Shown here one piece after another: positions 447 through 46,662 of a stretch of DNA of 64,000 nucleotides. Under the pieces are notes generated by a model that ran no database searches, was not told the origin of the DNA, and saw only the letters and a program-made list of their open reading frames with translations. How positions within the stretch are numbered: the stretch's first letter is position 1; each line of letters opens with the position of its first letter. The DNA is from Vicinamibacteraceae bacterium (GTDB lineage Bacteria; Planctomycetota; Phycisphaerae; Phycisphaerales; UBA5793): positions 64,768 to 128,767 of the forward strand of contig WYBR01000013.1 in the NCBI GenBank assembly GCA_011525805.1, in the 5' to 3' direction. Both the position numbers and the translations under genes were made by a program.

Positions 447-3050
447 ATGATCCGATCGCTCACTGGCGCGCTCCTCGTTTCGGTCGGCCTCGGCTTCGCC
501 GCCGGACCGGATCATCCCGGCCGCGTGTCGGCCGACGGGATCGCCAGTGTCTCCTCGTCGTGGAGCCGGCCGGAAGACCTCATCGCCCGTCGGTTGACGC
601 AGCACATCGGGCGATTCGCGCGGCCCGGCCCGGCCGAGGATCCACAGTCGGGCTACCGCGCGGCGACGGCGATTCTCCGCCGCGCCACCGCGCTCGCCCC
701 CGATGACGTCGAAGTGCATCGGCGCCTCGCAGCCGCTGCGGCGCTCGCCGGCGCGGAACCGCACGTGATCGCGCAGGCCGATCGAGACCTGCTCCGCCTC
801 GAGCCCGACCACGCCGCCGCGCAGTGGCGCATCATCCAGCGCGCCATCGAGGAACGCCAGAGCGTCGCCGAGAGGCTCGACCTCTGTCGTCGACTTCTCG
901 AATCGGACGCGGGCCGGCGCCTGGCGCGCGAAGTGCGCAGTCGCATCGCCTTCCGCGCCGCATCTCTGGCGCTGGAGCAGGACCGCACCTCGCTGGCGAC
1001 GTCGTGGCTCGAAGAGGCGCTGCGGCAGGATCCGACCAACCTCGATGCCGCCGCTTTGCTCGCGCTCGAGACCGACCGGCACACGGCGCGGCGCGAGGCG
1101 CTCGTGCGGGCCCTGATGGCGCTCGTGAAGGCCGATCCGCTCAACGAGGCGGCCCTGGCCGATCTCACCGCCGCCGTGCAGGAAGCGGGGTGCTTCGCCG
1201 GCGCGGCCGATCTCATCGAGGCGATGAGCGTGCTCGCCGCCCGCGCGGGAGCGAGCATCACCGACGACCTCTTTGCCGACTACGCCATGCTCCGCGCCGC
1301 CGAGAGCGGCCCGAGGACCGGCCTCGACCTCATCGCGCAGCGCCAGCAGGCTTTCGATCGCGCCGAGCGCCAGCGCCTTCAACGCGAGTGGTACGAGGCG
1401 CAGCAGGAGGCCCACCGTCTCGCGCTGGCCGAGAACCGCGCGGCGCCGCCCCTCGAAGAGATGCCGACCTTCGAGGATGCGCGCATCGATCTCTCGCTGC
1501 ACGTCCAGATCACCCGCGCGCTGCTCGCTCTCGCCGCCGACGATGCGGCCCAGGCCGCGGCCGCGCTCGCCGAACTCGAGCGCCGCTGGGAGCAGGCCAT
1601 CGCCGACCTCGACGCCGTGGATCGCGCCGAACTGCCCGCGACGGCGATCGCGGCGCTCGATGCGGACCGCCGCCGCGCCGTGGCGGACCGGGCGTGGATT
1701 CGACTCTGGCTCGGCCTCAACGTCGACGAAGCCGCCGCCGACCTCGCCTGGCTCGAGGCCGACGCCGCGCTCCCGGCTGCTGAACTCGAACGGCTTCGCG
1801 GCTGGCTCGCCCTGCGCCGCGCACAACCCCAGGCGGCAGTCGACGGCCTCCAGCCCCTCTCCGGCGACGACCCGCTTGCCATGCTCGGCGCGGCCCTCGC
1901 CCTCGAGCAACTCGACCGCGGAGCCGAGGCCGTGCGCCTTCTCGGCGAGATTCACCTCGCGCAGCCCGGCTCGCTGCTGGGAGTGTGGAGCCGGTGGCGC
2001 TGCGAGAGACTGACCGGTCGGCCCCTTGCTCCGCCACCTGACGCCCGCACCGTCGAGCGAGAACTCGGCCGCCTTCCGCAGACGCTCAGCGACCTCATCC
2101 TTCGGCCGCAGCGCCACTTCAGCCTCACGATCGCCCCGCGCGCCGCGCGCGTCGAGCCGCTCGACGCCATGCTGCTTGACGTCACCATCCGCAATGACAG
2201 CCCGTGGCCGGCCGCGATCGGCCCGGGGCGCATCATCCCCGGCCGCCTCGCCGTCTTCCCGATCTTTCACCTTGCCGGTCGGCGGATTCAGACCGGCACG
2301 CCGCCGCTCACCGTGGAACTCTCCCGCCGCATGATGCTCCTGCCCTCGGAGTCGATGACGACGACGATCGCCCTCGACCACACGCTCCTGGGCCTTCTCA
2401 TTCCCGGCCTGGCGCTTCGCCCCCTCTCGCTGGAGTTTCAGGCGATGCTCGACTACGTCGTTCAGTCCGACGGATCGATCCAGCCGCGGCCCTGGAGCCT
2501 CGTCCGCCAGTCCTCGGCGATGCAGGTTCAACCCTGGCGCGAATCGCTCGAACCCTCCGGCCGACTTGCCGACGCCCGCTTCGCCGCCGGCGACGTTCAC
2601 GAATCCATGCGCGCCATCTCAGAGATCGGCGCCATCCTGCACGGACGCCTGACGCGCACGCTCGATCCGCAGCGCGACGCGGCGCTCATCGCCGAGGCCG
2701 AGGCGGAACTTGGCGCCCTCATCGAACGCTGGCCGAGCCTCGATCCCTCCGTCGCCGCCTGGGCGGTGCTCACCCTGCCCTTCCAGAAAGAGGGCATCGC
2801 GCAGCGAATCGACTCCCTCGACCGCTTCGAGGACGCGGCGCGGCGATCGACCGACCCGCTCGTGCAGACGGCGTGGATCGCGGCGCGCACCAGCCGGGCC
2901 AACGACGTCGTCATCGAAAGCGCCTTGCGAAGCGACGATCCCGATCTGCGCGCACTCGCCGCCCACGCCCGGGCCTACCTCCAGCAGCCGCCGCCGGCCG
3001 ATTCGCCCGCTCTCCCCACCGAAACTCCCGCGCCCGAACCGCAGAAGTGA
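447..3050 (+). CDS. Large TPR-like / alpha-helical repeat protein with N-terminal signal or anchor
   Basis: Track ORF 270..3050. I prefer the in-frame ATG at 447 (MIRSLTGALLVSVGLGFAAG, hydrophobic signal) preceded by aaggaaagag. The body is Ala/Leu/Arg-rich with TPR-like stretches (e.g. WLEEALRQDPTNLDAAALLA). No catalytic motif recognised. Confidence 0.6.
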   Translation: MIRSLTGALLVSVGLGFAAGPDHPGRVSADGIASVSSSWSRPEDLIARRLTQHIGRFARPGPAEDPQSGYRAATAILRRATALAPDDVEVHRRLAAAAALAGAEPHVIAQADRDLLRLEPDHAAAQWRIIQRAIEERQSVAERLDLCRRLLESDAGRRLAREVRSRIAFRAASLALEQDRTSLATSWLEEALRQDPTNLDAAALLALETDRHTARREALVRALMALVKADPLNEAALADLTAAVQEAGCFAGAADLIEAMSVLAARAGASITDDLFADYAMLRAAESGPRTGLDLIAQRQQAFDRAERQRLQREWYEAQQEAHRLALAENRAAPPLEEMPTFEDARIDLSLHVQITRALLALAADDAAQAAAALAELERRWEQAIADLDAVDRAELPATAIAALDADRRRAVADRAWIRLWLGLNVDEAAADLAWLEADAALPAAELERLRGWLALRRAQPQAAVDGLQPLSGDDPLAMLGAALALEQLDRGAEAVRLLGEIHLAQPGSLLGVWSRWRCERLTGRPLAPPPDARTVERELGRLPQTLSDLILRPQRHFSLTIAPRAARVEPLDAMLLDVTIRNDSPWPAAIGPGRIIPGRLAVFPIFHLAGRRIQTGTPPLTVELSRRMMLLPSESMTTTIALDHTLLGLLIPGLALRPLSLEFQAMLDYVVQSDGSIQPRPWSLVRQSSAMQVQPWRESLEPSGRLADARFAAGDVHESMRAISEIGAILHGRLTRTLDPQRDAALIAEAEAELGALIERWPSLDPSVAAWAVLTLPFQKEGIAQRIDSLDRFEDAARRSTDPLVQTAWIAARTSRANDVVIESALRSDDPDLRALAAHARAYLQQPPPADSPALPTETPAPEPQK

Positions 3051-3749: not shown

Positions 3750-6700
3750 GTGAGCACATCGATCCTCGAAGCCAACCTCCGCGCCCTCGGCCCGCACAAC
3801 ACTCGCCTTGCCCAGCGCCTTCGCTCGGCCCGCCCCCGCCCCGATTGTGCCTTCGCACCGACGCCGCAGGAGGTTCCCTCTCTCTCGCTCGCCGGCTCGC
3901 AGTTGTGCAGCCGGCACAAGCCCCTCGACGAGGCCGACCGATTCGTCGCCGGCATTGATGTCATCGAGCACGCCGCGATCGTCATCCTCGGCTTCGCCGC
4001 CGGATATCACGTTCAGCGCCTCGCCCAGCGCCTGCGCAAGTCGAGCCTCATCATCGTCTACGAGCCCGACCTCGCCCTCCTCCGCGCCGTCTTCGAGCGC
4101 ATCGACCACTCGAAGTGGATGGCCGAGACGAATCTCGTCATCGTCGATGAGGCCGAGGACACCGCAGAGATGTCCGTGCAACTCGCCGGCGCCGAGGGCA
4201 TCGTCGCGCAGGGCACCACCATCGCCGTCCACCTCCCTAGCCGCGCCCGCCTCGGCGAGGGCGCGGCCCGTTTCGCCACCGCCTTCGCCAACCTCGTCAA
4301 GTCGATGCGCACGACGATGCTCACCACGCTCGTCCACGCCGGCACGACCTGCCGCAACCTCTGCCTCAACCTCGATCATTACGCCGCCGGCGAAGGCATC
4401 GAGCCCCTGCGCAATCTCGCGCGGGGCCGCACAGCCCTGCTCATCGCCGCCGGCCCCAGCCTCGCCCGCCACTACGACCTCCTCACCGAGCCGTCGCTGC
4501 GCGAGCGCCTCGTCCTCATCGCCGTCCAGACTTGCCTGCGGCCGCTGCTGAGGCGAGGCATCCGGCCCCACTTCGTCACCGCGCTCGACTACCACGAGAT
4601 CAGCCGCAACTTCTACGACGATCTCGACCCCCAGGACCTGCGCGACATCACTCTCGTGTGCGAGCCGAAGGTCAATCGCGCCGTCGTCGAGGCCTATCCC
4701 GGCCCGGTGCGCTGCGTCGGCAGTTCCTTCCTTGATCGCCTCCTCGGCCCGCTGCGGCGCGACATGGGAACCGTGCCCGCAGGCTCGACCGTTGCCCACC
4801 TCAGTTTCTATCTCGCTCAGTTCCTCGGCTGCGACCCCATTGTCCTCGTCGGGCAGGACCTCGGCTTCACCGACGGCCTCTACTACGGCCCCGGCGCCGC
4901 CATTCACGACCAGTGGGCCGCCGAACTCAACGCCTTCAACACCATCGACATGATGGAGTGGTCGCGCGTCGCGCGCATGAAGCGCCACCTCCGGCACGCC
5001 GCGGCCCAGGACGGCTCGCCAATGCTCGTCGATGAGCAGATGGCGACCTATCTCAGTCAGTTTGAGCGCGACTTCTCCACCGCCCCTCAGACGATCATCG
5101 ACGCTCAGGGCGGAGGCGTCGCCAAGCGCCACACTACGGTCCGACCGCTCGAGGCGGTCATCGCCGACGCCCTCGCCGACCCCGCCCCCCTCCCCCGCTT
5201 CCCGACGAACCGCGCGCGCCTCGACCAGCGCCGCCTCACCGCCGCCATGCGCCAGATCGCGTCCGTCCGCGACGAGATTGAGCGGCTCCGCGCGGCGAGC
5301 GAGGCCACCACCGCCGTCATCGCGGCGATGCTCGAACAACAGCACAACGCCGCCGCCATGGACCGCCACTTCCGGCAGATCCACGAGAAGCAGCGCGAGG
5401 TCGCCCGCCTTGGCCGCGCCCAGGAGATCGTCAACCTCGTCAACCAACTCGGCGTCTTCAAACGCATCAAGGCCGATCGCCGACTCGAACTGCTCGACTC
5501 CCTCACCCCTTTGGAACGCCAGCGCGAAGAACTCCTCCGCGACCGCACGAACCTCGATTGGCTCGCCCAGGCCTGCGCCGAGACGACGGAGATCCTCACC
5601 GAGTCGATGTCGGTGCTGCGCGGCGAGGCGGTCAATCCGCGCATCACCCACGCCCGACCCTCCGCCGCGATCGAGGCCGGTCTTGATGGGCCGTGCGATC
5701 AGCCGCCGCGCTCCCGCCGCGTCGCCGCCCTCGTCGCCTGCGATCCGCTGCGCGGCGGCCTCCTTCAGCGGCGCGACCTCGCGGCCGACCTCGCTGGCCG
5801 CACGCTCCTGCAGCGCACCCTCGAACGCCTCGGCCGCTGCCGGAAGATCGACACGATCATCCTCCTCGCGCCCGACGGATTCGATGCTGCCTCGCTCCTG
5901 GACGTGGCCCGCATCGATCGACCCGTTGTCGTTCATCACGTCGCCGAGCCGATCTTCGACGCCGCGCACAAGCCCATCGCCGCCGCGCGAATGTGGAGCG
6001 ACTGGTGCTGGCGCGGCGGCATCGGCGGCATGACCGTCTTCGACGAGATCGTCGCGCCGCGCCACATGGCCGCCGCCATGGACCGGTTCAACCTCGACGC
6101 CGCGCTGATCGTCGGTCCCGACTGGCCCCTGCTCGACTTCACCGACGCCACCGGTTGCGACGCGCTCATCGCGCGCTACCTCGAGCAGCCGAACTCGCAT
6201 CGCCTCGTCTTCTCCCAGGCCCCGCCCGGCCTGTGCGGAGTCGTCATCGAGCGCAGCCTCATGCGCGAGATGGCCTCGCGGGCGCGCCAGTTCACCCTCG
6301 GCTCCATGCTCTCTTACATTCCCAGCCTGCCGCAACTCGATCCGACGAGTAAAGACGCCTGTATTAAGTTGCCCACGGCCATCCGCAGCACTCTGGGCCG
6401 CTTCATCGCTGACAGCCCGTCCCGCCTTGCTGCCCTGCGCTCGATGTTCTCCGAATCCGGCGAGGCGCTCTTCGACCTCGCGGGAGAATCGCTGGTCGCG
6501 ACGGCCGCCCGGCACTTCAATCGGTCCGACGCCGCCGACCTCCTGCCGCGACAGATCGAGATTGAACTGACCACGCGCCGCACGACCCGGCCCTTCTGGC
6601 GGCAGCCGCCCATGGACGCCTTCGACCTGCCGCTCGACGCCGCGCAGAGCGTCATCGATCAGTGCGCGTCGCGGAGCGACATCGCCCTGACCTTCGGCGG

Positions 6701-7370
6701 CCGCGGCGATCCCCTTCTTCATCCACATTTCGCCGCCATCGCCCGACATGCGAGCGAACAAGGCTGTACCGCAATTCACGTCCGCACCGATCTGCCAGAG
6801 TCCTTTGGACCGGCTGCTGACCTTCTCGACCTGCCGCTCGATGTAATCTCAATCGAACTGCACGGAGAATGCGCCGACTCTTATCGAGACATCATGGGGG
6901 TTGATGGCTTCGACTCCCTTCGCGGACAGGTCGACGCCCTCCTCAACGCCCGCACTCAGCGCGCCGGCGACCCCAATGCCCTCGCCCTGCCCTGGATCGT
7001 TCCGCGACTCTGCCGCTGCCGCGCCTCGCTCGATGACCTTCGGAACTTCTGCGACCGCTGGCTCCATTATGCCGGCGCCGTAATGATCGATTCGATTCCC
7101 GCGACCTGTGAATGTAACGAAGACGTTATCCGCGTCGCGCCGCCGCTTGCGGCTTCGCGATTCCAGGCCCGCCAGACGCTCCAAGTTCACGCCGACGGCG
7201 TCGCCTTCGCCGCCGCCACCACCTGGGACCGGGATCGTGCTCCCCGCGTCGAGAGCCTTGCCGACTCGCCCCTCTCTCAACTCTGGCCTTTGCTCCGCGA
7301 ATCTTATAACGAGGCGACCGACTCGCTCGGTGAGCAACCAACGTTACTCCTGCAACTCGACCCCGCCTGA
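3750..7370 (+). CDS. Maf/DUF115 (MptE-like) protein fused to a nucleotidyltransferase-like domain and a cysteine-less radical-SAM-like domain
   Basis: GTG start. aa ~200-400 carry DUF115 / motility-accessory-factor signatures (LLIAAGPSL, HFVTALDYH, GSTVAHLSFYLAQFLGCDPIVLVGQDLGF). aa ~650-880 resemble an SpsF/NeuA-type nucleotidyltransferase (VAALVACDP...LAGRTLLQRTLERLGRCRKIDTIILLAPDG). aa ~960-1130 resemble a radical-SAM core (IEIELTTRRTTRP...LTFGGRGDPLLHPHF) but lack the CxxxCxxC motif. Confidence 0.75.
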   Translation: MSTSILEANLRALGPHNTRLAQRLRSARPRPDCAFAPTPQEVPSLSLAGSQLCSRHKPLDEADRFVAGIDVIEHAAIVILGFAAGYHVQRLAQRLRKSSLIIVYEPDLALLRAVFERIDHSKWMAETNLVIVDEAEDTAEMSVQLAGAEGIVAQGTTIAVHLPSRARLGEGAARFATAFANLVKSMRTTMLTTLVHAGTTCRNLCLNLDHYAAGEGIEPLRNLARGRTALLIAAGPSLARHYDLLTEPSLRERLVLIAVQTCLRPLLRRGIRPHFVTALDYHEISRNFYDDLDPQDLRDITLVCEPKVNRAVVEAYPGPVRCVGSSFLDRLLGPLRRDMGTVPAGSTVAHLSFYLAQFLGCDPIVLVGQDLGFTDGLYYGPGAAIHDQWAAELNAFNTIDMMEWSRVARMKRHLRHAAAQDGSPMLVDEQMATYLSQFERDFSTAPQTIIDAQGGGVAKRHTTVRPLEAVIADALADPAPLPRFPTNRARLDQRRLTAAMRQIASVRDEIERLRAASEATTAVIAAMLEQQHNAAAMDRHFRQIHEKQREVARLGRAQEIVNLVNQLGVFKRIKADRRLELLDSLTPLERQREELLRDRTNLDWLAQACAETTEILTESMSVLRGEAVNPRITHARPSAAIEAGLDGPCDQPPRSRRVAALVACDPLRGGLLQRRDLAADLAGRTLLQRTLERLGRCRKIDTIILLAPDGFDAASLLDVARIDRPVVVHHVAEPIFDAAHKPIAAARMWSDWCWRGGIGGMTVFDEIVAPRHMAAAMDRFNLDAALIVGPDWPLLDFTDATGCDALIARYLEQPNSHRLVFSQAPPGLCGVVIERSLMREMASRARQFTLGSMLSYIPSLPQLDPTSKDACIKLPTAIRSTLGRFIADSPSRLAALRSMFSESGEALFDLAGESLVATAARHFNRSDAADLLPRQIEIELTTRRTTRPFWRQPPMDAFDLPLDAAQSVIDQCASRSDIALTFGGRGDPLLHPHFAAIARHASEQGCTAIHVRTDLPESFGPAADLLDLPLDVISIELHGECADSYRDIMGVDGFDSLRGQVDALLNARTQRAGDPNALALPWIVPRLCRCRASLDDLRNFCDRWLHYAGAVMIDSIPATCECNEDVIRVAPPLAASRFQARQTLQVHADGVAFAAATTWDRDRAPRVESLADSPLSQLWPLLRESYNEATDSLGEQPTLLLQLDPA

Positions 7371-7385
7371 GATCTCTTCCCCACC

Positions 7386-8135
7386 GTGACCCGCTCTCTT
7401 TCCCATTCTCCTCCGCACGCCACGGCCGTGATCCTTGCTCGCGCCGGCAGCAAGGGCCTGCCCGGCAAGAATGCAATGCTCCTCGCCGGCCGGCCCATGG
7501 TGGCGCACACCATCGCCCACGCGCGTCATGCCTCACTCATTACCCGAGTTCTGGTCTCAACCGACTGCCCCTGCGTTCGCCGCGCCGCCGAGGACGAAGG
7601 CGTCGAAGTAATAGACCGCCCTTCCGAACTTGCCGGCGACACTGCGACCGTTGACGCAGCCGCCCGCCACGCCCTGACCGACGACGCCGCGCCTATCGCC
7701 GTCCTGCTCTACGCCAACGCCCCCATTCGTCCGCCCGGCCTCATCGACCGCGCCGTGCGCACACTCATCGAGACCGGCGCGGACTCGGTGCAAAGTTATG
7801 CGCCCGTCGGCAAGTATCACCCCTTCTGGGAAGTTACCATCGACGGCGCTGGCCGCGTCGCTCCCTTCGTTCCCAACACCATCTATCGCCGCCAGGACCT
7901 TCCGCCCGTTTATGTTCCGGATGGCGGCGTCATCGCCGTGCGACGTGAGTCGCTCTACGATGTTGTTGAAGGTCAGCCGCACGCCTTTCTCGGGCGCGAT
8001 CGTCGAGGTATTCTCAACGAAGCCGGAGCCGTTGTCGATATTGATACACGCCAAGACTTCCTGATGGCTCAACTCATCCTGTCTGAAGGCGCCGGAGCCC
8101 TTTCCGCGATGGCGGATTCCCATGCGCGTCGGTAA
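7386..8135 (+). CDS. neuA: Acylneuraminate (nonulosonate) cytidylyltransferase
   Basis: GTG start. Carries the AVILARAGSKGLPGKN nucleotide-binding motif typical of CMP-NeuAc/CMP-KDO synthetase-type enzymes. 249 aa. Overlaps neuB by 14 nt. Confidence 0.85.
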   Translation: MTRSLSHSPPHATAVILARAGSKGLPGKNAMLLAGRPMVAHTIAHARHASLITRVLVSTDCPCVRRAAEDEGVEVIDRPSELAGDTATVDAAARHALTDDAAPIAVLLYANAPIRPPGLIDRAVRTLIETGADSVQSYAPVGKYHPFWEVTIDGAGRVAPFVPNTIYRRQDLPPVYVPDGGVIAVRRESLYDVVEGQPHAFLGRDRRGILNEAGAVVDIDTRQDFLMAQLILSEGAGALSAMADSHARR

Positions 8136-19834: not shown

Positions 19835-20740
19835 TCAATCCCGCCCTTCAAGTTCCTCAATCGTCTTCGGCCAGTCGTCGCGCAGGAGGCGGGAGAGGGA
19901 TCGGTCGGCGAGGATGCGGCCGCCGGTCTGGCAGCGGGCGCAGTAGTTCATTTCGTTCTCGGCGTAGACGATGCGCTGAACCGGCGCCTCGCAACGCGGG
20001 CAGGGCTTGCCGAACCGGCCGTGGACCGCGAAGCCGTCGCGAAATGCCGTCATCTCGCCGCGGCCGGGGAACCGCCGGCCGCCGTCGAACTGCTCGCGCA
20101 GACGCCGCGCCCAGTGCGTGAGTACATCCAGCGATGCGGAATGCAGAGCGCTGATCTGATCATCACTCATCTCTGCCGTTCGGATGAAGGGAGAGAGTTG
20201 CGCGGCGTGGAGGATCTCGTCGGAGTAGGCGTTGCCGACGCCGTCGATGAGGCGCGGGTCGGTCAAGGCCCGCTTGAGGGTGCGATTCTCACTTCGAAAC
20301 CTCTTGATCAGTTCCTGGCGCGAACAGGTGAGCAGGTCGATGCCGCCGCGATTGAGGCGTTGCAGGTCGTCGGCACTGCCCACGGCGGTAAGAGTCGCGC
20401 GATGCTTCGTTCCCGCCTCGGTGAGCATGAGCGTACCGTTCTCGAAGCGGAAGGCGGCCAGGTCGCTGCGACCTGTCGGCCGGACTCTTCCTTCACTCCA
20501 GAGCAGTCGTCCCGCGATCATCAGATGAATCACCAGCGCCGCGCCGGAATCGAAGTGAAGGACGATCCGCTTGCCAAGGCGAGTCGTCCGTGTTAATACG
20601 CATCCCTCGAAGGCGTCGACGGGTGGATCGACGGATCTTAATAGAGACGGTCCGCGAATGATAATATCGTTCAGCCTCCGGCCTTCAACGTGATGTTCGA
20701 GCGCGTCGAGATAGGCGAGAATGTCGGGCAGTTCGGGCAT
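19835..20740 (-). CDS. Fpg/Nei-family DNA glycosylase (formamidopyrimidine-DNA glycosylase-like)
   Basis: Starts MPELPD (catalytic Pro2/Glu3). Has an H2TH segment (LTDPRLIDGVGNAYSDEILHAAQL) and a C-terminal zinc finger CPRCEAPV...YCARCQ. Confidence 0.85.
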   Translation of the reverse strand: MPELPDILAYLDALEHHVEGRRLNDIIIRGPSLLRSVDPPVDAFEGCVLTRTTRLGKRIVLHFDSGAALVIHLMIAGRLLWSEGRVRPTGRSDLAAFRFENGTLMLTEAGTKHRATLTAVGSADDLQRLNRGGIDLLTCSRQELIKRFRSENRTLKRALTDPRLIDGVGNAYSDEILHAAQLSPFIRTAEMSDDQISALHSASLDVLTHWARRLREQFDGGRRFPGRGEMTAFRDGFAVHGRFGKPCPRCEAPVQRIVYAENEMNYCARCQTGGRILADRSLSRLLRDDWPKTIEELEGRD

Positions 20741-27593: not shown

Positions 27594-27886
27594 GATTCGG
27601 GCAAGACCTCCATGTCCAACCGTCGGCCGTTCAGGCGTTTGCGGGCCGGGCGGCGCGAGCCCGTGGCGGCGGCCCTCACCGTTCCGGTGCGCGTGGGCGT
27701 CGCCGATCCCTCGACGACGACCCGCGAGTCGGGATTCCCCGTCCCGCAGCATATGGTATCGGCCCGCCGCAGTTCCACAACGCAAAACTCGTTTGTGTCT
27801 CGAAGTCGGTCCAATGGCTTCGTCGGTGGGGCCGGGGGATCGAGCCTTGCGGCGGTCCAAGGGAGATCGTACTCGCCTGTCTGTTC

Positions 27887-27921
27887 GCCGTGCTTCGCTC
27901 AAAGCCGCGAAGCATGGCGCT
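27887..27921. repeat. Solitary hairpin module of the same family as the 44357-45076 array (stem class S4)
   Basis: gCCGTGCTTCGC-tcaaagc-CGCGAAGCATGGcgct matches 44970-45004 (tCCATGCTTCGC-ccagagc-CGCGAAGCATGGcgcc) at 30/35 positions in the same orientation. Lies between the smc start and the DUF1559 gene stop. Confidence 0.7.
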
Positions 27922-28768: not shown

Positions 28769-29284
28769 GGAAGGCTCGTCGCGCGACGGGCGGGTCGCCC
28801 CGTCGGGACGGTCCATTCTCTCAAATCGTCCGGGGTTTGTCAAGGGAGAAACCGTTCTTTCGCGGTTGCGCGGTGGCGCAGAGCGGGTCGGCCGCGGGAG
28901 TGCGGCGGAGGCGGACGATGCGGTTTCTGCTGAGGCGGGGATCATGGTTCTTTCCTTCCGACGGTGTGTAAGGCATTGCGGGCGTGAGGCTTGCGTACGG
29001 AGTTGCGATCGCGGGCACTCTCGCACTCACCTCGGGTATCTGCCTGAGAATGCGCCGTCCCTTGCATGATTCCGCAACGGCGCCCCTGCAATGTCTCCCC
29101 CGCGAAGGGTGCTGCGGCAAGGCGGGGGGAGGCGGGGTTTCAGGCCGGGCGAACCTCCCGGCACACGCGCTTGCCCCGCGGGAATGGGAATACGGCGTAC
29201 ACTGCTGCGGCAAAATCGCCCGGAGAGCCGGCCCAGGTCCGGCCGGGCCGGAGCCCGCTCCTTGCGGGTCGGAGGACGGCACTC

Positions 29285-29857
29285 GTGGAGGACTCTCGGC
29301 CATCGGCGGAGCGGAGAGGATCGCCCCCCGCGGCCGGCGCCGGCCGCGGGGCCGATTCGCTCTTTGACGATCTATACGCCGAACTGCGCGCGATTGCGGC
29401 GGCGCTGCTGCGCGCGGAGTGGCGCCGCGGGCACACGCTCCAATCGGTCGATCTCGTCAACGAGGCGTATCTGCGCATCGACCGCGCGGCCGGACGGGCG
29501 TGGACGAGCGAGGCGGAGTTTCGCGCGGCGGCCGCGGGAGTGATGCGCCGCGTGCTGTGCGACCACGCGAGGAAGCGCAATCGACTCAAGCGCGGCGGCG
29601 GGCGAGGGCGGCTTACGCTCGTCGATGCGCTCGTCGGCGAGCGCCGCGAGGCCATCGACGTCGTCGTGCTCGATGACCTGCTCGACCGGCTCGCGGCGGA
29701 GGATGCACGCGCGGCGCGCGTCGTTGAAATGCGCTTCTTCGGAGGGATGAACATGGACGAGGTTGCGCAGGCGCTGGGCGTCTCCAAGCGCACGATCGAA
29801 GGGGACTGGACCTTTGCGCGATCGTGGCTGCGCAGCCAACTCACGGGCGGCGCCTGA
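29285..29857 (+). CDS. ECF-type RNA polymerase sigma factor (TIGR02999-like)
   Basis: LFDDLYAELRAIAAALLRAEWRRGHTLQSVDLVNEAYLRI... plus a C-terminal HTH (MDEVAQALGVSKRTIEGDWTFARSWL). No ATG lies near the domain start, so the in-frame GTG at 29285 is proposed. The start is uncertain. Confidence 0.75.
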   Translation: MEDSRPSAERRGSPPAAGAGRGADSLFDDLYAELRAIAAALLRAEWRRGHTLQSVDLVNEAYLRIDRAAGRAWTSEAEFRAAAAGVMRRVLCDHARKRNRLKRGGGRGRLTLVDALVGERREAIDVVVLDDLLDRLAAEDARAARVVEMRFFGGMNMDEVAQALGVSKRTIEGDWTFARSWLRSQLTGGA

Positions 29858-29910
29858 CCGGTGGCGCCATGCTTCGACCGGCGTTGGGGCCGAAGCATGG
29901 GGGCGGGCTT

Positions 29911-37604: not shown

Positions 37605-37678
37605 GCCGCTGTAATGGGCGATACTGGACTCGAACCAGTGACCTCACGGGTGTGATCCGTGCGTTCTAGCCAACTGAA
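37605..37678 (-). tRNA. tRNA-Val (anticodon CAC)
   Basis: The reverse complement folds as a cloverleaf. Acceptor GGGCGAT/ATCGCCC, D stem GTTC/GAAC, anticodon stem CACGG/CCGTG with loop ATCACAC, T arm ACTGG-TTCGAGT-CCAGT, discriminator A. 74 nt; CCA not encoded. Confidence 0.9.
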
Positions 37679-37849
37679 CTAATCGCCCGGTGGACGATGG
37701 TAGGGCGGGGGGTGCGGGGGTCAAACTCCGAGTCGGGCCCGTTGGGCGTTGTCCGGGCGGCGGGATGATCGTCGCGGCCGGGCCGTAGAATGCAGCGACG
37801 GCGGCGGCCCGGGCCGCCTCCTGACGGTCATCTTCGGAGCACCGCGCGC

Positions 37850-42935: not shown

Positions 42936-43802
42936 CTACCAACTGCCGCTGGCGCCGCCGCCGCCGGAGGAGCCGCCGCCAAAGCCGCCGCCGAAGCCGC
43001 CCGACGATCCGCCGTCGGACGAATAGTCCTCCATGAACTGGGAGGTCGCGCGCAGCGTCTTGACGACATAAAGAAGCAGGATGACGCCCAGACCGATCAG
43101 CACCCACCCCCAGCCGCGCTTGCCATTGCGATAGAGGCTGATTCCCACCGGGATCGCGAGGACGCCGAGCGCGCCGGCGACGATCACGGCCCAGTTCGTG
43201 CCATAGCGGACCGAGGCGAACTCGCGGCCGAGCGCGCGAATGCCTGCGGAGACGCCGCCGGAGTAGTCGCCGCGCTTGAAGTGGGGAATGATGGCGCCGT
43301 CCATGATGCGCTGGGCGTCGCCGTCGCGCAGCGTGCCGTACCCGGCGCCGAGTTCGATGCGGGCGCGGCGGTCGTTGATGGCGACGAGCAGGAGCACGCC
43401 GTCGTTGGCGGGGAGATTGCCGACGCCCCAGGCGTTGAAGACGCCGCGCGCGAAGTCCTCGATGGCTCCGGCGCCGGCGTCGGGGTAGTCGCCCATCGAG
43501 TTGATGATGAGCACGGCGATCTCGACGCCGCTGCTTGCCTCGGCGAACCAGAGGTACTGCTCGAATCCCTCCTCCTGCATCGGGGTGAGAACGCCGGCGA
43601 GATCGGTGATGTAGCCGTTGTCGGGCTGCGGCCACGGGGCGTAGGTGCGCTTCGTCTCGTCGCCGACGCCGCGCTGCGCCGGATCCGCTTCGCCGGCGCC
43701 GGTCGGAGGCTCTTGCGCGCCGAGCGGGGCGGCGGCGAGCAGCACGCCCAGCAGCGCCGCCAAACCGCGCCGCCAATCAGGAATCGTGAACGATCGCATC
43801 AT
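42936..43802 (-). CDS. TPM-domain protein (YgcG-like) with C-terminal TM segment and Gly-rich tail
   Basis: Track ORF trimmed to MMRSFTIPDW...signal. YITDLAGVL...GVEIAVLIINSMG...NDGVLLLVAINDRRARIELGAGYG is the TPM phosphatase-fold signature. The tail reads SSGGFGGGFGGGSSGGGGASGSW. Confidence 0.8.
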   Translation of the reverse strand: MMRSFTIPDWRRGLAALLGVLLAAAPLGAQEPPTGAGEADPAQRGVGDETKRTYAPWPQPDNGYITDLAGVLTPMQEEGFEQYLWFAEASSGVEIAVLIINSMGDYPDAGAGAIEDFARGVFNAWGVGNLPANDGVLLLVAINDRRARIELGAGYGTLRDGDAQRIMDGAIIPHFKRGDYSGGVSAGIRALGREFASVRYGTNWAVIVAGALGVLAIPVGISLYRNGKRGWGWVLIGLGVILLLYVVKTLRATSQFMEDYSSDGGSSGGFGGGFGGGSSGGGGASGSW

Positions 43803-44313
43803 CAATCTCGTTGGGGTTGTCGGCGCCGGCGGGGTAGTGCTCGGCGAGGCGCGAGCCAATCAGCGCGATCGCTTCGCAAAGCCCCTGCGCCATGCGGCCG
43901 GCGCGGAAGTGCTCCGCCATGACATCGCGCAGGTCATACCAGTAGTCGAACCCGACTCTCGCCGTGATGCCGCGATCGCCGTAGATGAAGAACTCACGGT
44001 TGGCGCGGACGACGAGAATCAGGACGCAGTTGTGCTCGCGCGTGCGATGGAGGCCCAGGCGGCGAAAGACCTCGACGGCCTTGGTTGCGAGGTCGATCCA
44101 GCACCAGCGCAGGACGACAACCTTGATCTCCGCCGTCGTGCCGCGCTCGGCCTGCGCGATCGCGTCCTCGACGCGCTTCTCTTCTTCAGCAGTGAGTATG
44201 CCGGCGCTGTCCAACGGCGTGCTCCCGGACAGAATGAGCGGCCGGCCGCGCACCAAACGGAATTCGGCCGACCGATCAGTGTACGCTTCTCCCACCCGCC
44301 GGCCCGTGGGCAT
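43777..44313 (-). CDS. TPM-domain (DUF477-like) protein
   Basis: LTAEEEKRVEDAIAQAERGTTAEIKVVV...NCVLILVVRANREFFIYGDRGI matches the TPM pattern. Start taken as the ATG at 44313; the alternative is 44370. Overlaps the next TPM gene by ~26 nt. Confidence 0.7.
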   Translation of the reverse strand: MPTGRRVGEAYTDRSAEFRLVRGRPLILSGSTPLDSAGILTAEEEKRVEDAIAQAERGTTAEIKVVVLRWCWIDLATKAVEVFRRLGLHRTREHNCVLILVVRANREFFIYGDRGITARVGFDYWYDLRDVMAEHFRAGRMAQGLCEAIALIGSRLAEHYPAGADNPNEIDDAIVHDS

Positions 44314-44356
44314 CGGCCTACGGCCGCGACACGCGAGGCGGCCGCGAGTGCGATTG

Positions 44357-45076
44357 GTGGCGCCCTGCATTGACCCGCTCTGGGGTCAATGCATGGCGAG
44401 CGGGCAAGGGCGCCCGTCGGGTGCCACACATCGACCTGCTTCGGGCGATGTGTGCCGAGCGAGCGAAGGCGATCGTTCGCGCCTGCACGTTCGCCATCGA
44501 TCTCCGCCCAGAGCGGCGGCGATCGATGCCACCCCGCGAGAAGAAGGGTGCCACTGCACCCTCGCGGCTCTGAGCGAGAGTGCAGTGCGTCGGGCAGGGG
44601 CCGTCGATTGATGGTGCCATGCATTGACCCGCTCTGGGGTCAATGCATGCCGTGCGGGCAAGGGTGATCGTCGGGTGCCACTGCACCCTCGCGGCTCTGG
44701 GCGAGAGTGCAGTGCGGCGGGCAGGGGCATTCGTTCGCGCTTGCACGTTCGCCATCGATCTCCGCCCAGAGCGGCGGCGATCGATGCCACCCCGCGAGAA
44801 GAAGGGTGCCACTGCACGCTCGCGCGCGGGGTGCCACTGCACGCTCGCGGCTCTGAGCGAGAGTGCAGTGCGGCGGGCAAGGGCGGACGCTTGCTCTTGC
44901 CCGTTCGCACACAGCACGCTGGCGCGATGCTGTGTGGCACCCTTTGCGATGCTCGCGCGCCTGCCCGCTCTCCATGCTTCGCCCAGAGCCGCGAAGCATG
45001 GCGCCGGGCGAGCGGATTCTAATCGTCGGTGCCATGCATTGACCCGCTCCGGTATCAATGCATGGCGAGGGGCAAG
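44357..45076. repeat. Mosaic array of ~12 hairpin modules (~50 nt each, both orientations); REP/BIME-like but with a conserved loop, conserved flanks and variable stems
   Basis: Module consensus: GGTGCCA - stem - SGCTCTGR - stem' - TG[GC]CG.GCGGGCA[AG]GG. Forward copies start near 44357, 44419, 44547, 44613, 44673, 44806 (truncated), 44830 and 45028. Reverse copies lie at 44471-44533, 44740-44792, 44889-44941 and 44957-45004. Overlapping ORFs on both strands only mirror the DNA repeats. Confidence 0.85.
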
Positions 45077-45131
45077 GCCGATCGTCCTCGCTGGCGCTTC
45101 GGCCTGTTGGCGAGACGCGGTGCTCCCGCCT

Positions 45132-45836
45132 TCACTGGTCCAACCTCTTGAGACGCTCGCGCACCAGCGCCATCTCGGCGACGCCGGCGCGGTGGGCGGC
45201 GCTCACGTCGGGCATGGCTTCGCCTTCGCGCGGCCGCAACAGCACGATCGACAGCACCGCCTCTCTCAGAAAGACGCCGGCCGGCTCGCGCACCGGCTCG
45301 GGCTTGAGCGAATCAACGATGCGCACGTCGCCGTCCGCCGCATCATCGGTGACTACCCAGTGCAGTCCGCCCGTCTCCGCGCGGCGAATGAGCAGCAGCG
45401 CCGCCTGCCGCCCGTTGACGTGATCGCGGAGCCGATCGGCCGCGCCCGCGGCCGCGGGATCGACCAACCCGTAATCGAAGCCGTCCTGAACGATCACTCG
45501 AAGCAAGTCAGGATGGAGCGTGCCGGTGGAAGTCGAGTCGACTGGAATGGCAGCGCGATCGACGCCGAGGCGGAAGCGCAGGTTCTTGTTCCCGGGCGAG
45601 AGGCCGTAGGCGGCGTAGGCGGAGGAGAGGCTGAGCAGGCCGCAAGTGTGCGACTCGGTCTGCTCAAGCGGCTCGGCCGGCGCGATCGTTCTTGACTCAG
45701 GCACGTCAGGAGAGCGCCAGGCGTCGGACTTGCCGCTGATGCGCCCGGCGATGAAGAGCGCCCCGGCGAGAACGACCAGCAGGAGCAGCCCGAGACCGCC
45801 GCCCGCGAGCAGGAGAATGAGACGCCAACGCTTCAT
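45132..45836 (-). CDS. Membrane-anchored papain-fold (peptidase C39-like) protein
   Basis: Track ORF trimmed to the ATG at 45836 (MKRWRLILLLAGGGLGLLLLVVLAGALFIAG, TM). Candidate catalytic Cys in ESHTCGLLSLSSAYAAYG and His in GLHWVVT, as in C39-like domains. Assigned by motif only. Confidence 0.5.
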   Translation of the reverse strand: MKRWRLILLLAGGGLGLLLLVVLAGALFIAGRISGKSDAWRSPDVPESRTIAPAEPLEQTESHTCGLLSLSSAYAAYGLSPGNKNLRFRLGVDRAAIPVDSTSTGTLHPDLLRVIVQDGFDYGLVDPAAAGAADRLRDHVNGRQAALLLIRRAETGGLHWVVTDDAADGDVRIVDSLKPEPVREPAGVFLREAVLSIVLLRPREGEAMPDVSAAHRAGVAEMALVRERLKRLDQ

Positions 45837-45915
45837 GAAGGAAAACCATAGGGCTCTGATCCAGAACGGAGTGCCCTTCGCCAGATCGCTCGCTTGAAGT
45901 CCCGCCAGGTGAGGA

Positions 45916-46662
45916 TCACCGTCGCCCCGCGCCGCACTCGGGACAGCCGGCATCTGGATTGCCTCGAAGGTCGTATCCGCAGGCCCGGCAGCGGCCACGG
46001 GCAGTGCGGAAGCGAGCACTGGCGCACTTCACGGCCTCGCAAGAGAGGATGACCAAGACACACGCCCCGAGTAGCAGCGCCTGCCCAGCCCAGATCGGTC
46101 GAAGCGGGATCACTCGACCGAATTCGCTCAGGTACTGGGATGACCGGCTGCTGCGGCCATCCGGCAGTTGAACACCCGTGGATGCGCTGACGCGCCACGC
46201 CTGACTCTTCCTGATCGAAGCGCACCAGAGCAGGCGAACGGGCCAACCGACTGTGTGAACCGCGCACCGGTGAGTTGGATCGTCGGTTGCTCCGCGGAAT
46301 CGCCCGTCATATACGCGCTTCACGGTCCCCGGGACCGCCTGCTCGATCCCATTCACACTTCCGCGCGACGACGCGATCCACCGGTGCAACTGTGCATCCC
46401 CACCGACTTCAACGTCCTGCATGAGATAGACGCTCGCCACGTCCCCCTCGTGCGCGTAGACCAACGTCGCGCGCGAGCCGATCTCCTCCACCATCGAGAT
46501 GTCCGTCACATCGTGGAGCGCGGCGCCCATCGCACCGCTGGCATCGTACCCGATGGCAAACCACGCCGCCCAACCTGCGTCAATGAGAAGCGCGAGGACC
46601 GACGCTCGCATCAGTGTGCGCCGGATAACCACTCGTCGCGGCGGAGTGCTCTGTTGCGTCAT
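45916..46662 (-). CDS. Hypothetical two-TM protein with C-terminal CxxCGYDLRG...CPECG zinc ribbon
   Basis: 248 aa. N-terminal TM (ASVLALLIDAGWAAWFAIG), second TM (ALLLGACVLVILS), then RCRACGYDLRGNPDAGCPECGAGRR. This tail motif recurs in many planctomycete hypothetical proteins. Confidence 0.55.
   Translation of the reverse strand: MTQQSTPPRRVVIRRTLMRASVLALLIDAGWAAWFAIGYDASGAMGAALHDVTDISMVEEIGSRATLVYAHEGDVASVYLMQDVEVGGDAQLHRWIASSRGSVNGIEQAVPGTVKRVYDGRFRGATDDPTHRCAVHTVGWPVRLLWCASIRKSQAWRVSASTGVQLPDGRSSRSSQYLSEFGRVIPLRPIWAGQALLLGACVLVILSCEAVKCASARFRTARGRCRACGYDLRGNPDAGCPECGAGRR

Follow-up and report, generated by a model that had tools for sequence, protein, structure and literature searches.

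A mosaic of hairpin modules from an uncultured Phycisphaerae clade, and its probable place in a lineage-specific REP/BIME-like repeat family

What kind of element fills an intergenic gap with short hairpins that share their single-stranded parts and differ in their stems? The question is raised by an array at positions 44355-45083 of a 64,000-nucleotide stretch of contig WYBR01000013.1 (below, the window), lying between two co-directional genes, one for a 273-residue protein and one for a TPM-domain protein. A model's reading of the letters (the original prediction) had placed about 12 hairpin modules here, had proposed that structure rather than sequence is selected, and had set the array apart from ordinary families of repetitive extragenic palindromes (REPs) and bacterial interspersed mosaic elements (BIMEs). 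The modules are where it placed them, as a repeat search, a hairpin scan and a covariance model agree. The separation from REP/BIME elements was not borne out, given the dispersal of the modules, their BIME organisation, their absence at the orthologous locus and their variation between strains. The array is very probably one locus of a lineage-specific REP/BIME-like hairpin family of an uncultured Phycisphaerae clade.

Reading through the sequence, together with the repeat search and the hairpin scan, resolves the array into 11 complete hairpin modules and one truncated module, in both orientations. Each module runs from a tag, GGGTG[C/G], through a stem, a loop of the GCTCTG type and the complementary stem to a tail, CGnnGGGCARGG; the exact tag-loop-tail pattern is matched five times in the window, where chance would give 0.01 matches, and each match lies in the array. 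The stems fall into six classes, designated S1 to S6. The original class counts hold throughout (three copies of S1, three of S2 plus the truncated one, two inverted copies of S3, one inverted copy of S4, and the relatives CACATCG and CACAGCA), as does the higher-order repeat described with them. The modules and the features built from them are as follows, in window coordinates.

44355-44415, plus strand: M1, class S1 (TGCATTGACC / GGTCAATGCA), with the tag variant GGTGGCGCC; 26.6 bits; fold -22.7 kcal/mol
44419-44474, plus strand: M2, class S5 (CACACATCGACC / GGGCGATGTGTG), loop TGCTTC; from the hairpin scan; 17.5 bits
44475-44534, minus strand: M3, class S3 (CATCGATCGCCGCC / GGCGGAGATCGATG), G.A mismatch at stem-base position 9; 34.5 bits; folds
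44546-44605, plus strand: M4, class S2 (CACTGCACCCTCGC / GCGAGAGTGCAGTG), C.A mismatch; 79.4 bits
44612-44669, plus strand: M5, class S1; 27.8 bits
44673-44732, plus strand: M6, class S2; 79.7 bits
44733-44792, minus strand: M7, class S3; 35.8 bits
44805-44828, plus strand: M8, truncated S2 with tag and 5' arm only; from reading the sequence; forms no hairpin (z-score +1.0)
44829-44888, plus strand: M9, class S2, G.A mismatch; 84.7 bits
44874-44903, no strand: extra hairpin at the junction of the M9 and M10 tails (CGGGCAAGGGC / GCTCTTGCCCG); from the hairpin scan
44889-44942, minus strand: M10, class S6 (CACACAGCA), atypical loop; from an inverted-repeat search; 22.1 bits; folds
44955-45006, minus strand: M11, class S4 (CCATGCTTCGC / GCGAAGCATGG); from the hairpin scan; 21.5 bits
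45027-45083, plus strand: M12, degenerate S1, loop GCTCCG, two substitutions in the 3' arm; 17.5 bits; folds
44459-44566 and 44717-44824, no strand: higher-order duplication of an S3-S2 head-to-head dimer, 108 nt, 93% identical

A covariance model seeded solely on S2 copies, and run on the window with its filters off, recovers all 11 complete modules in these orientations (E values from 5.5e-21 to 0.024) and has no further match below E=0.2 in the rest of the 64 kb. Exact matches to the tail motif at 19996 and 26475 are due to chance and are not modules. Folded as DNA, the complete modules have energies between -12.9 and -22.7 kcal/mol and z-scores between -1.7 and -4.6, and the predicted hairpin is the minimum-energy fold in 10 of the 11, an alternative fold being marginally better for the S2 copy at 44673.

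Are the stems preserved as sequences or as paired structures? Pairs were counted in a structural alignment of 150 modules (137 of them distinct) guided by the S2-seeded covariance model; a MAFFT alignment of all classes was not used for this because it sets the 3' side of S3 one base off register. Standard pairs occupy 87.2% of the alignment cells, against 17-42% when the 3' partners are slid, changes on both sides occur in 15 of the 16 stem pairs, and the covariation score, 0.303, compares with 0.118 in shuffles, none of 500 shuffles reaching the observed value; all of these are counts of cells rather than of events, in an alignment fitted to the structure and containing few classes. The covariation of the hairpins is formally strong, and the hairpins are constrained as structures.

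The stems are one family diversified by compensated steps, and to call them unrelated, as had been done, was an overstatement. Four compensated pair swaps, at positions 3, 4, 6 and 7 counted from the base, and one deleted pair separate S2 from S3, while S1, S4 and S5, compared by inspection, differ from one another by one or two swaps and one pair deletion. Compensated variants are also found inside classes, namely CTGAAC/GTTCAG and ATCGAAC/GTTCGAT in two of the loci fetched for comparison (numbered L001 onwards), L015 and L058. The internal mismatch first ascribed to S2 is present, but it is not peculiar to that class: S2 and S3 have an unpaired G.A at one shared position (C.A in two window copies), and the mismatch column is unpaired in 128 of the 137 distinct modules. 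Information per column amounts to 1.79 bits in the tag, 1.71 in the loop, 1.42-1.47 in the arms and 0.98 in the tail, so that the highest conservation lies in single-stranded positions. The loop, described at first as conserved, does keep its ends, but its middle varies across the larger family (GCTCTG, GCTCGG, GCTCCG, GCTTTG and GCCCTG, with C/T and T/C/G at the two central positions). Of 132 distinct modules, 78, mostly S2, have GTGC as the four bases 5' of the stem, and 54, mostly S3, have GTGG. With covariation strong and the single-stranded positions the most conserved, the proposal that structure rather than sequence is selected stands, and the conserved tag, loop and mismatch pattern would fit recognition of the folded hairpin by a protein, as had also been suggested.

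Is the array peculiar to this gap, or one copy of something dispersed? The tag-loop-tail pattern was scanned against 185,579 genomes, one per species. Among the matches listed, loci with several matches occur in one genome only, the metagenome-assembled genome (MAG) Phycisphaerae bacterium Bin_17 (JBDIVQ01), which has at least 13 of them; true single matches come from Phycisphaerales UBA5793 and from one 3-kb contig binned as Saccharibacteria, and the remaining matches, which have no hairpin, are the chance matches expected of such a pattern. Classes S1-S5 fill the intergenic gaps at the 13 fetched Bin_17 loci, where a hairpin/class caller finds about 125 modules over 85 kb, the arrays measuring 120 to 1,990 bp; over the fetched loci and the window together (163 kb), the covariance model finds about 145 full-length modules. 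A metagenome scan with the S2 core adds 24 contigs, representing about 20 distinct loci, from the window's own lineage. These contain S1-S5 mosaics, including the window-specific S1 variant (ATGCATTGACC), and among them is the window's own locus, on L112, with 98.7% identity. Class S5, as in M2, recurs in L030, L112 and L126, and class S4, as in M11, is present in the Bin_17 locus L086.

All the arrays are intergenic, 11-155 nt from genes, and nearly fill their gaps, in both convergent and tandem (co-directional) gene arrangements. The neighbours are unrelated housekeeping genes (sulfatase, M28 peptidase, PCMT, CDP-alcohol transferase and similar), and the genes adjoining arrays gave no clue to the role of the modules; six metagenome contigs (L001-L006) that were fetched for the gene beside the array all end 150-390 nt into it. 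What the sampled loci contain is a stem-loop unit in many dispersed extragenic copies, as in REPs, and the units are dispersed in intergenic DNA near unrelated genes as head-to-head and tail-to-tail (HH/TT) heterodimers.

BIMEs consist of REPs regularly spaced in alternating orientation (PMC2817692), and the Bin_17 arrays have this organisation: their sub-types are regularly spaced, alternate in orientation and are joined by conserved linkers. S2 and S3 alternate in opposite orientation, first head-to-head and then tail-to-tail, and S1-type modules do likewise with S4. Among 92 inverted neighbour pairs in Bin_17, 85 are S2-S3, seven are S1-S4 and none joins two modules of the same class. According to Tandem Repeats Finder, the dimers recur 3-10 times with a period of 139-141 nt, with higher-order periods in addition; for S1/S4 the period is 162 nt. 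Where tails meet they can form a third small hairpin, as at 44874-44903 in the window, the tails being the only parts able to cross-pair. The window array is a more scrambled mosaic of Bin_17-type parts; its module order (+ + - + + + - (+) + - - +) is less regular than that of the Bin_17 arrays.

How stable are such arrays in position and content? In the orthologous Bin_17 locus, L101, the genes follow the same order, DsbD / 273-aa homologue / TPM / TPM / Zn-ribbon / cytochrome; the homologue of the 273-aa flanking protein is 77% identical. The L101 region has no module, though modules are abundant elsewhere in Bin_17, and the corresponding region of the more distant relatives L103 and L105 has none either; array positions are not conserved between species. 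At much closer range, metagenome contig L112 (1-460, compared with window 44300-44620) carries two extra S1 units, 121 nt in all, between M1 and M2, together with a 35-nt indel in the M2/M3 spacer, and its flank is identical over 84 aligned columns. The extra units beside an identical flank thus indicate that arrays change by whole units over very short evolutionary distances. Arrays gain and lose whole units through local tandem amplification and unequal recombination. The original prediction had called the pattern not typical of simple tandem duplication, which was overstated: local tandem amplification clearly contributes.

Set beside known repeat systems, each feature that had been noted as striking is already documented for REP families. 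E. coli BIMEs (with their Y and Z1/Z2 REPs) and the REP clusters of Xanthomonas likewise show related sub-types alternating HH/TT with conserved linkers (PMC2817692, PMC8266576), compensated stem changes between sub-types with a common stem irregularity, variable numbers of tandem dimers, and a strictly extragenic location. TnpA-REP binds folded single-stranded REPs through the tetranucleotide, the stem irregularities and the loop (PMC8266576), which is the conservation pattern of the S modules. The S family differs from the E. coli and Xanthomonas systems in having at least six stem classes and no REPtron in the fragments searched.

A close likeness is to the GTAG super-family of Di Nocera et al. 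2013 (PMC3733652). Its members share with the S modules an unpaired 5' tetranucleotide, stems that can be as long as 12-13 bp and hold an unpaired G.A at a fixed place, sub-families whose stem residues are alternative but complementary, HH/TT heterodimers of elements with different stems, and clusters in which dimers are reiterated in tandem. The nearest types are the long-stem GTAG-24 and the GTGG-tagged GTAG-20 of Opitutus terrae, a member of the PVC superphylum, and the super-family is reported in Planctomycetes. Degenerate tags are also documented there (GYAG, GYRG, GTRG, GTMG and GTGG, the last in a PVC bacterium); the GTGG tag of the S modules is one of these, whereas GTGC is not among the forms listed there. 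The S modules further differ in often having C as the fourth tag base and in their extra conserved tail, and their sequences are unrelated to those super-family members that could be checked.

Two further systems resemble the family in part. Like the REPINs and RAYTs of Pseudomonas (RAYT, REP-associated tyrosine transposase; Bertels and Rainey, PMC3116915), the S modules are short, dispersed intergenic palindromes that come in inverted pairs and, inside a genome, evolve as a population; unlike REPINs, their inverted neighbours always belong to different classes (92 of 92 in Bin_17), and no flanked RAYT was seen. The arrays were not assigned to REPINs, since the Bin_17 neighbours are heterodimers in every case and only their tails cross-pair. 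The subterminal hairpins of IS200/IS605 elements and the repeats of class 3 TnpA-Y1 enzymes are, similarly, folded single-stranded hairpins with a 5' foot read by HUH/Y1 proteins (PMC6006769). Class 3 enzymes are found mainly in Planctomycetes, atypical repeats flank their genes in Planctomycetes and Acidobacteria, and the repeats can reach about 600 copies in Solibacter usitatus (Quentin et al., PMC6006769). The foot of these repeats is CnGA, in contrast to GGTG in the S modules. The S family differs from the classical cases in the GTGC tag form, in its conserved 15-nt tail, in how many stem classes it has and in lacking, so far, a REPtron. No description of such repeats in Phycisphaerae was found in the literature searched.

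How might a family of this kind arise and spread? In the S unit, which is about 55 nt long, an unpaired 5' tag, GGGTG[C/G], precedes a stem of 11-15 bp with a GCYYNG loop, and a tail of some 15 nt (CGnnGGGCARGG) follows. The family has split into sub-families S1-S6, whose stems diverged by compensated changes, with the tag and the loop ends kept and, in S2 and S3, the G.A position as well. New loci would be seeded when a trans-acting enzyme recognises and moves the folded single-stranded hairpin, and the most plausible mobilising enzyme would be an HUH/Y1 nuclease of the RAYT type. Such an enzyme would read the tag, the mismatch and the loop but not the sequence of the stem, and this would account for the freedom of the stems to covary. 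Effects on the host would be secondary and putative; examples are stabilisation of transcript 3' ends, termination, and the binding of a nucleoid protein or of gyrase.

An enzyme of this type was sought with a motif regular expression, by tblastn with two Y1 proteins, and with a hidden Markov model (HMM) of 100 homologues, the last searched against six-frame open reading frames (ORFs) of the window and of the Phycisphaerae-lineage loci L001-L131. The outcome of this search, and some features of the modules themselves, weigh against assignment to the REP/BIME-like class. Motif search, tblastn and clade HMM all find no Y1 transposase or RAYT in the window, as the original prediction had also noted, and no RAYT flanked by S modules was found among the genome fragments examined. 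The sole match among the searched loci is in the Bin_17 locus L056, which has two Y1 genes. One of these, a RAYT-like gene at 1485-2276 (minus strand, 263 aa), matches Pfam Y1_Tnp at 51.8 bits, and its best NCBIfam match, REP_Tyr_transpos, scores 66 bits, under the cut-off of 80. This gene has copies of a palindrome, AAACGTACCTGTCCCGTTT, in inverted orientation on either side, as have its orthologues, in place of S modules. The S tag reads GTGC or GTGG instead of the canonical GTAG, a difference from E. coli BIMEs and the Xanthomonas clusters too; the unit, at about 55 nt, is longer than a classical REP owing to the conserved 3' tail; and a semi-conserved loop (GCYYNG) is unusual for enterobacterial REPs. 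The window's own genome, moreover, was sampled only through 64 kb and metagenome fragments. The original prediction had named dispersed copies accompanied by a RAYT as the mark of an ordinary REP/BIME family; the dispersed intergenic copies exist, in at least two related genomes, but the RAYT flanked by modules is not among the loci found.

The orthologues of the RAYT-like gene (L133 2713-3396, L134 4187-4870 and L135 151-828; 76-80% identity) come from UBA5793 and two metagenome contigs. Among the fetched loci, the palindrome AAACGTACCTGTCCCGTTT is restricted to those with the RAYT-like gene, and it is absent from the window. The L056 gene was rejected as a lead to the S-module enzyme because it and its orthologues have this different flanking palindrome. 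The second L056 gene, at 524-1036 (plus strand, 170 aa), has a Y1_Tnp match and a Y----Q motif like that of class 3 enzymes, and is flanked by a hairpin repeat of its own, about 70 nt long (CGTGCTGACGCGTGGGGCTC...), at about 437, 1105 and 1282, not by S modules. A class 3 TnpA-Y1 was rejected as the cognate enzyme, the CnGA foot fitting neither strand of the modules. Upstream of the RAYT-like gene, L056 also has a 15-nt tandem repeat, GCGAGCGTGCGGTGT, in five copies (2700-2775).

The RAYT-type and class 3 Y1 genes of these genomes each carry their own, different flanking palindromes. The S modules may form a REP-like family independent of a flanking, cognate RAYT, propagated or maintained by some other protein that reads the tag, mismatch, loop and unusually conserved 3' tail; the mutually non-pairing stem classes, with inverted neighbours of different class in every case, would then be selected so that each hairpin folds on itself and long cruciforms are avoided in dense arrays. 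We consider this possible and rather unlikely.

It is less likely again that the modules are protein-binding sites maintained by the host (for gyrase or a nucleoid-associated protein, for example, in the manner of E. coli BIMEs), no longer mobile and serving chromosome organisation, their distribution owed only to ancient spread and local recombination. Binding of IHF, gyrase or Pol I is one of the marks of BIMEs. Such sites would agree with the failure to find a cognate transposase in the loci searched, with the conservation of tag, loop and tail across classes, and with the way in which arrays almost fill the intergenic gaps that they occupy. However, array positions differ between related species and array content between strains, which selfish dynamics fit better, and no binding protein can be named from the data.

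Considering that the covariation is strong and that the array, between two co-directional genes, is probably transcribed with them, the modules could instead be a structured RNA family, cis-regulatory or a small RNA, in the transcript of the 273-aa/TPM cluster, the covariation then reflecting selection on the RNA fold. In other bacteria, REPs have known effects on mRNA 3' ends. Yet it is difficult to see how one transcript would account for modules in both orientations within a single array, for modules beside unrelated genes and between convergent genes, or for an array that is missing from the orthologous Bin_17 locus and variable between strains. Single-sided changes of the G.U type number 0-3 per pair, as against 266 cells with double changes, and this scarcity gives no sign of selection on one RNA strand. 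An Rfam scan of the window has no match in the array, its sole match being a tRNA at 37615-37688 (minus strand), and a promoter/terminator scan finds no promoter-like or terminator-like site in the array and no terminator U tract. The RNA reading is accordingly very improbable. Finally, a purely local product of tandem duplication and inversion, with neither family nor recognition behind it, could claim the 108-nt duplication at 93% identity, the S1 units that differ in number among strains and the dimers reiterated in tandem in Bin_17, but it is refuted by the presence of modules, in several genomes, at dozens of unlinked loci whose flanks differ and by stem classes that recur across genomes, and we give it next to no weight.

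Several other identities were tried and rejected. An integron attC array would carry GTTRRRY, which is not found in 44357-45131, and the modules lie 3-66 nt apart without ORFs (no integrase search was made). A CRISPR array is at odds with units in both orientations and with 'spacers' that are themselves conserved linkers; a MITE (a miniature transposable element with inverted repeats) with the lack of visible terminal inverted repeats or target-site duplications; an intrinsic terminator with the lack of a terminator-like site inside the array; and a known RNA family with the lack of an Rfam match at gathering score in the array.

On the preferred reading, as a REP/BIME-like family, the array adds a new example to a kind already known rather than founding a new kind of system, and it opens no new principle or biological question. 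It extends REP/BIME-type elements to an uncultured Phycisphaerae clade. The six stem classes with their common tag, loop and tail, and the mismatch position common to S2 and S3, mark the positions that a protein would be expected to read, and stems that are free to vary provided pairing holds amount to a natural experiment on recognition.

There are practical consequences too. The arrays break short-read assemblies of the lineage, and they can mislead binning, as with L030. Many Bin_17 contigs end inside arrays, the repeats fragmenting MAGs of the lineage. Contig L030 itself (CAZYUH010000004.1, 3174 nt), which is binned as Candidatus Saccharibacteria, has S2, S3 and S5 modules at both ends, and these modules have a G+C content of 64-75%; the contig is probably a mis-binned Phycisphaerae contig.

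The genes on either side of the array are both read from the minus strand.

45132-45953, minus strand: upstream flanking gene, 273 aa, no Pfam family; stop codon 48 nt from the array
43777-44214, minus strand: downstream flanking gene, TPM-domain protein, 145 aa; TTG start at 44214 by orthology

The TPM gene had been given a start at 44313 and the gap a length of about 770 bp, and both need correction. The TTG at 44214 is exactly where homology with the orthologue in Bin_17 starts, at 81% identity across 145 aa; the gap without genes therefore spans 44215-45131, or 917 nt, and the array begins about 140 nt upstream of the TPM gene. In L101, the place of the window's array (44215-45131), between the 273-aa homologue and TPM, is taken by an Exo_endo_phos gene (6656-7621), and the window has an extra 248-aa gene at 45916-46662 that is missing from Bin_17 at that position. 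The repeat array could mislead gene calling, so that spurious ORFs are reported as proteins: ORFs of 131-350 aa run across it in several frames (for example 44318-45058 on the minus strand and 44643-45695 on the plus strand) and are judged spurious.

Elsewhere in the window, a scan for hairpins combined with stem class, the only method to detect them, finds two solitary relics of the S4 type.

27886-27919, minus strand: degenerate S4-like hairpin, intergenic (CCATGCTTCG...); 14.1 bits, E 0.21
29867-29900, plus strand: degenerate S4-like hairpin, intergenic (CCATGCTTCG...), 10 nt past the stop of the ORF at 29066-29857

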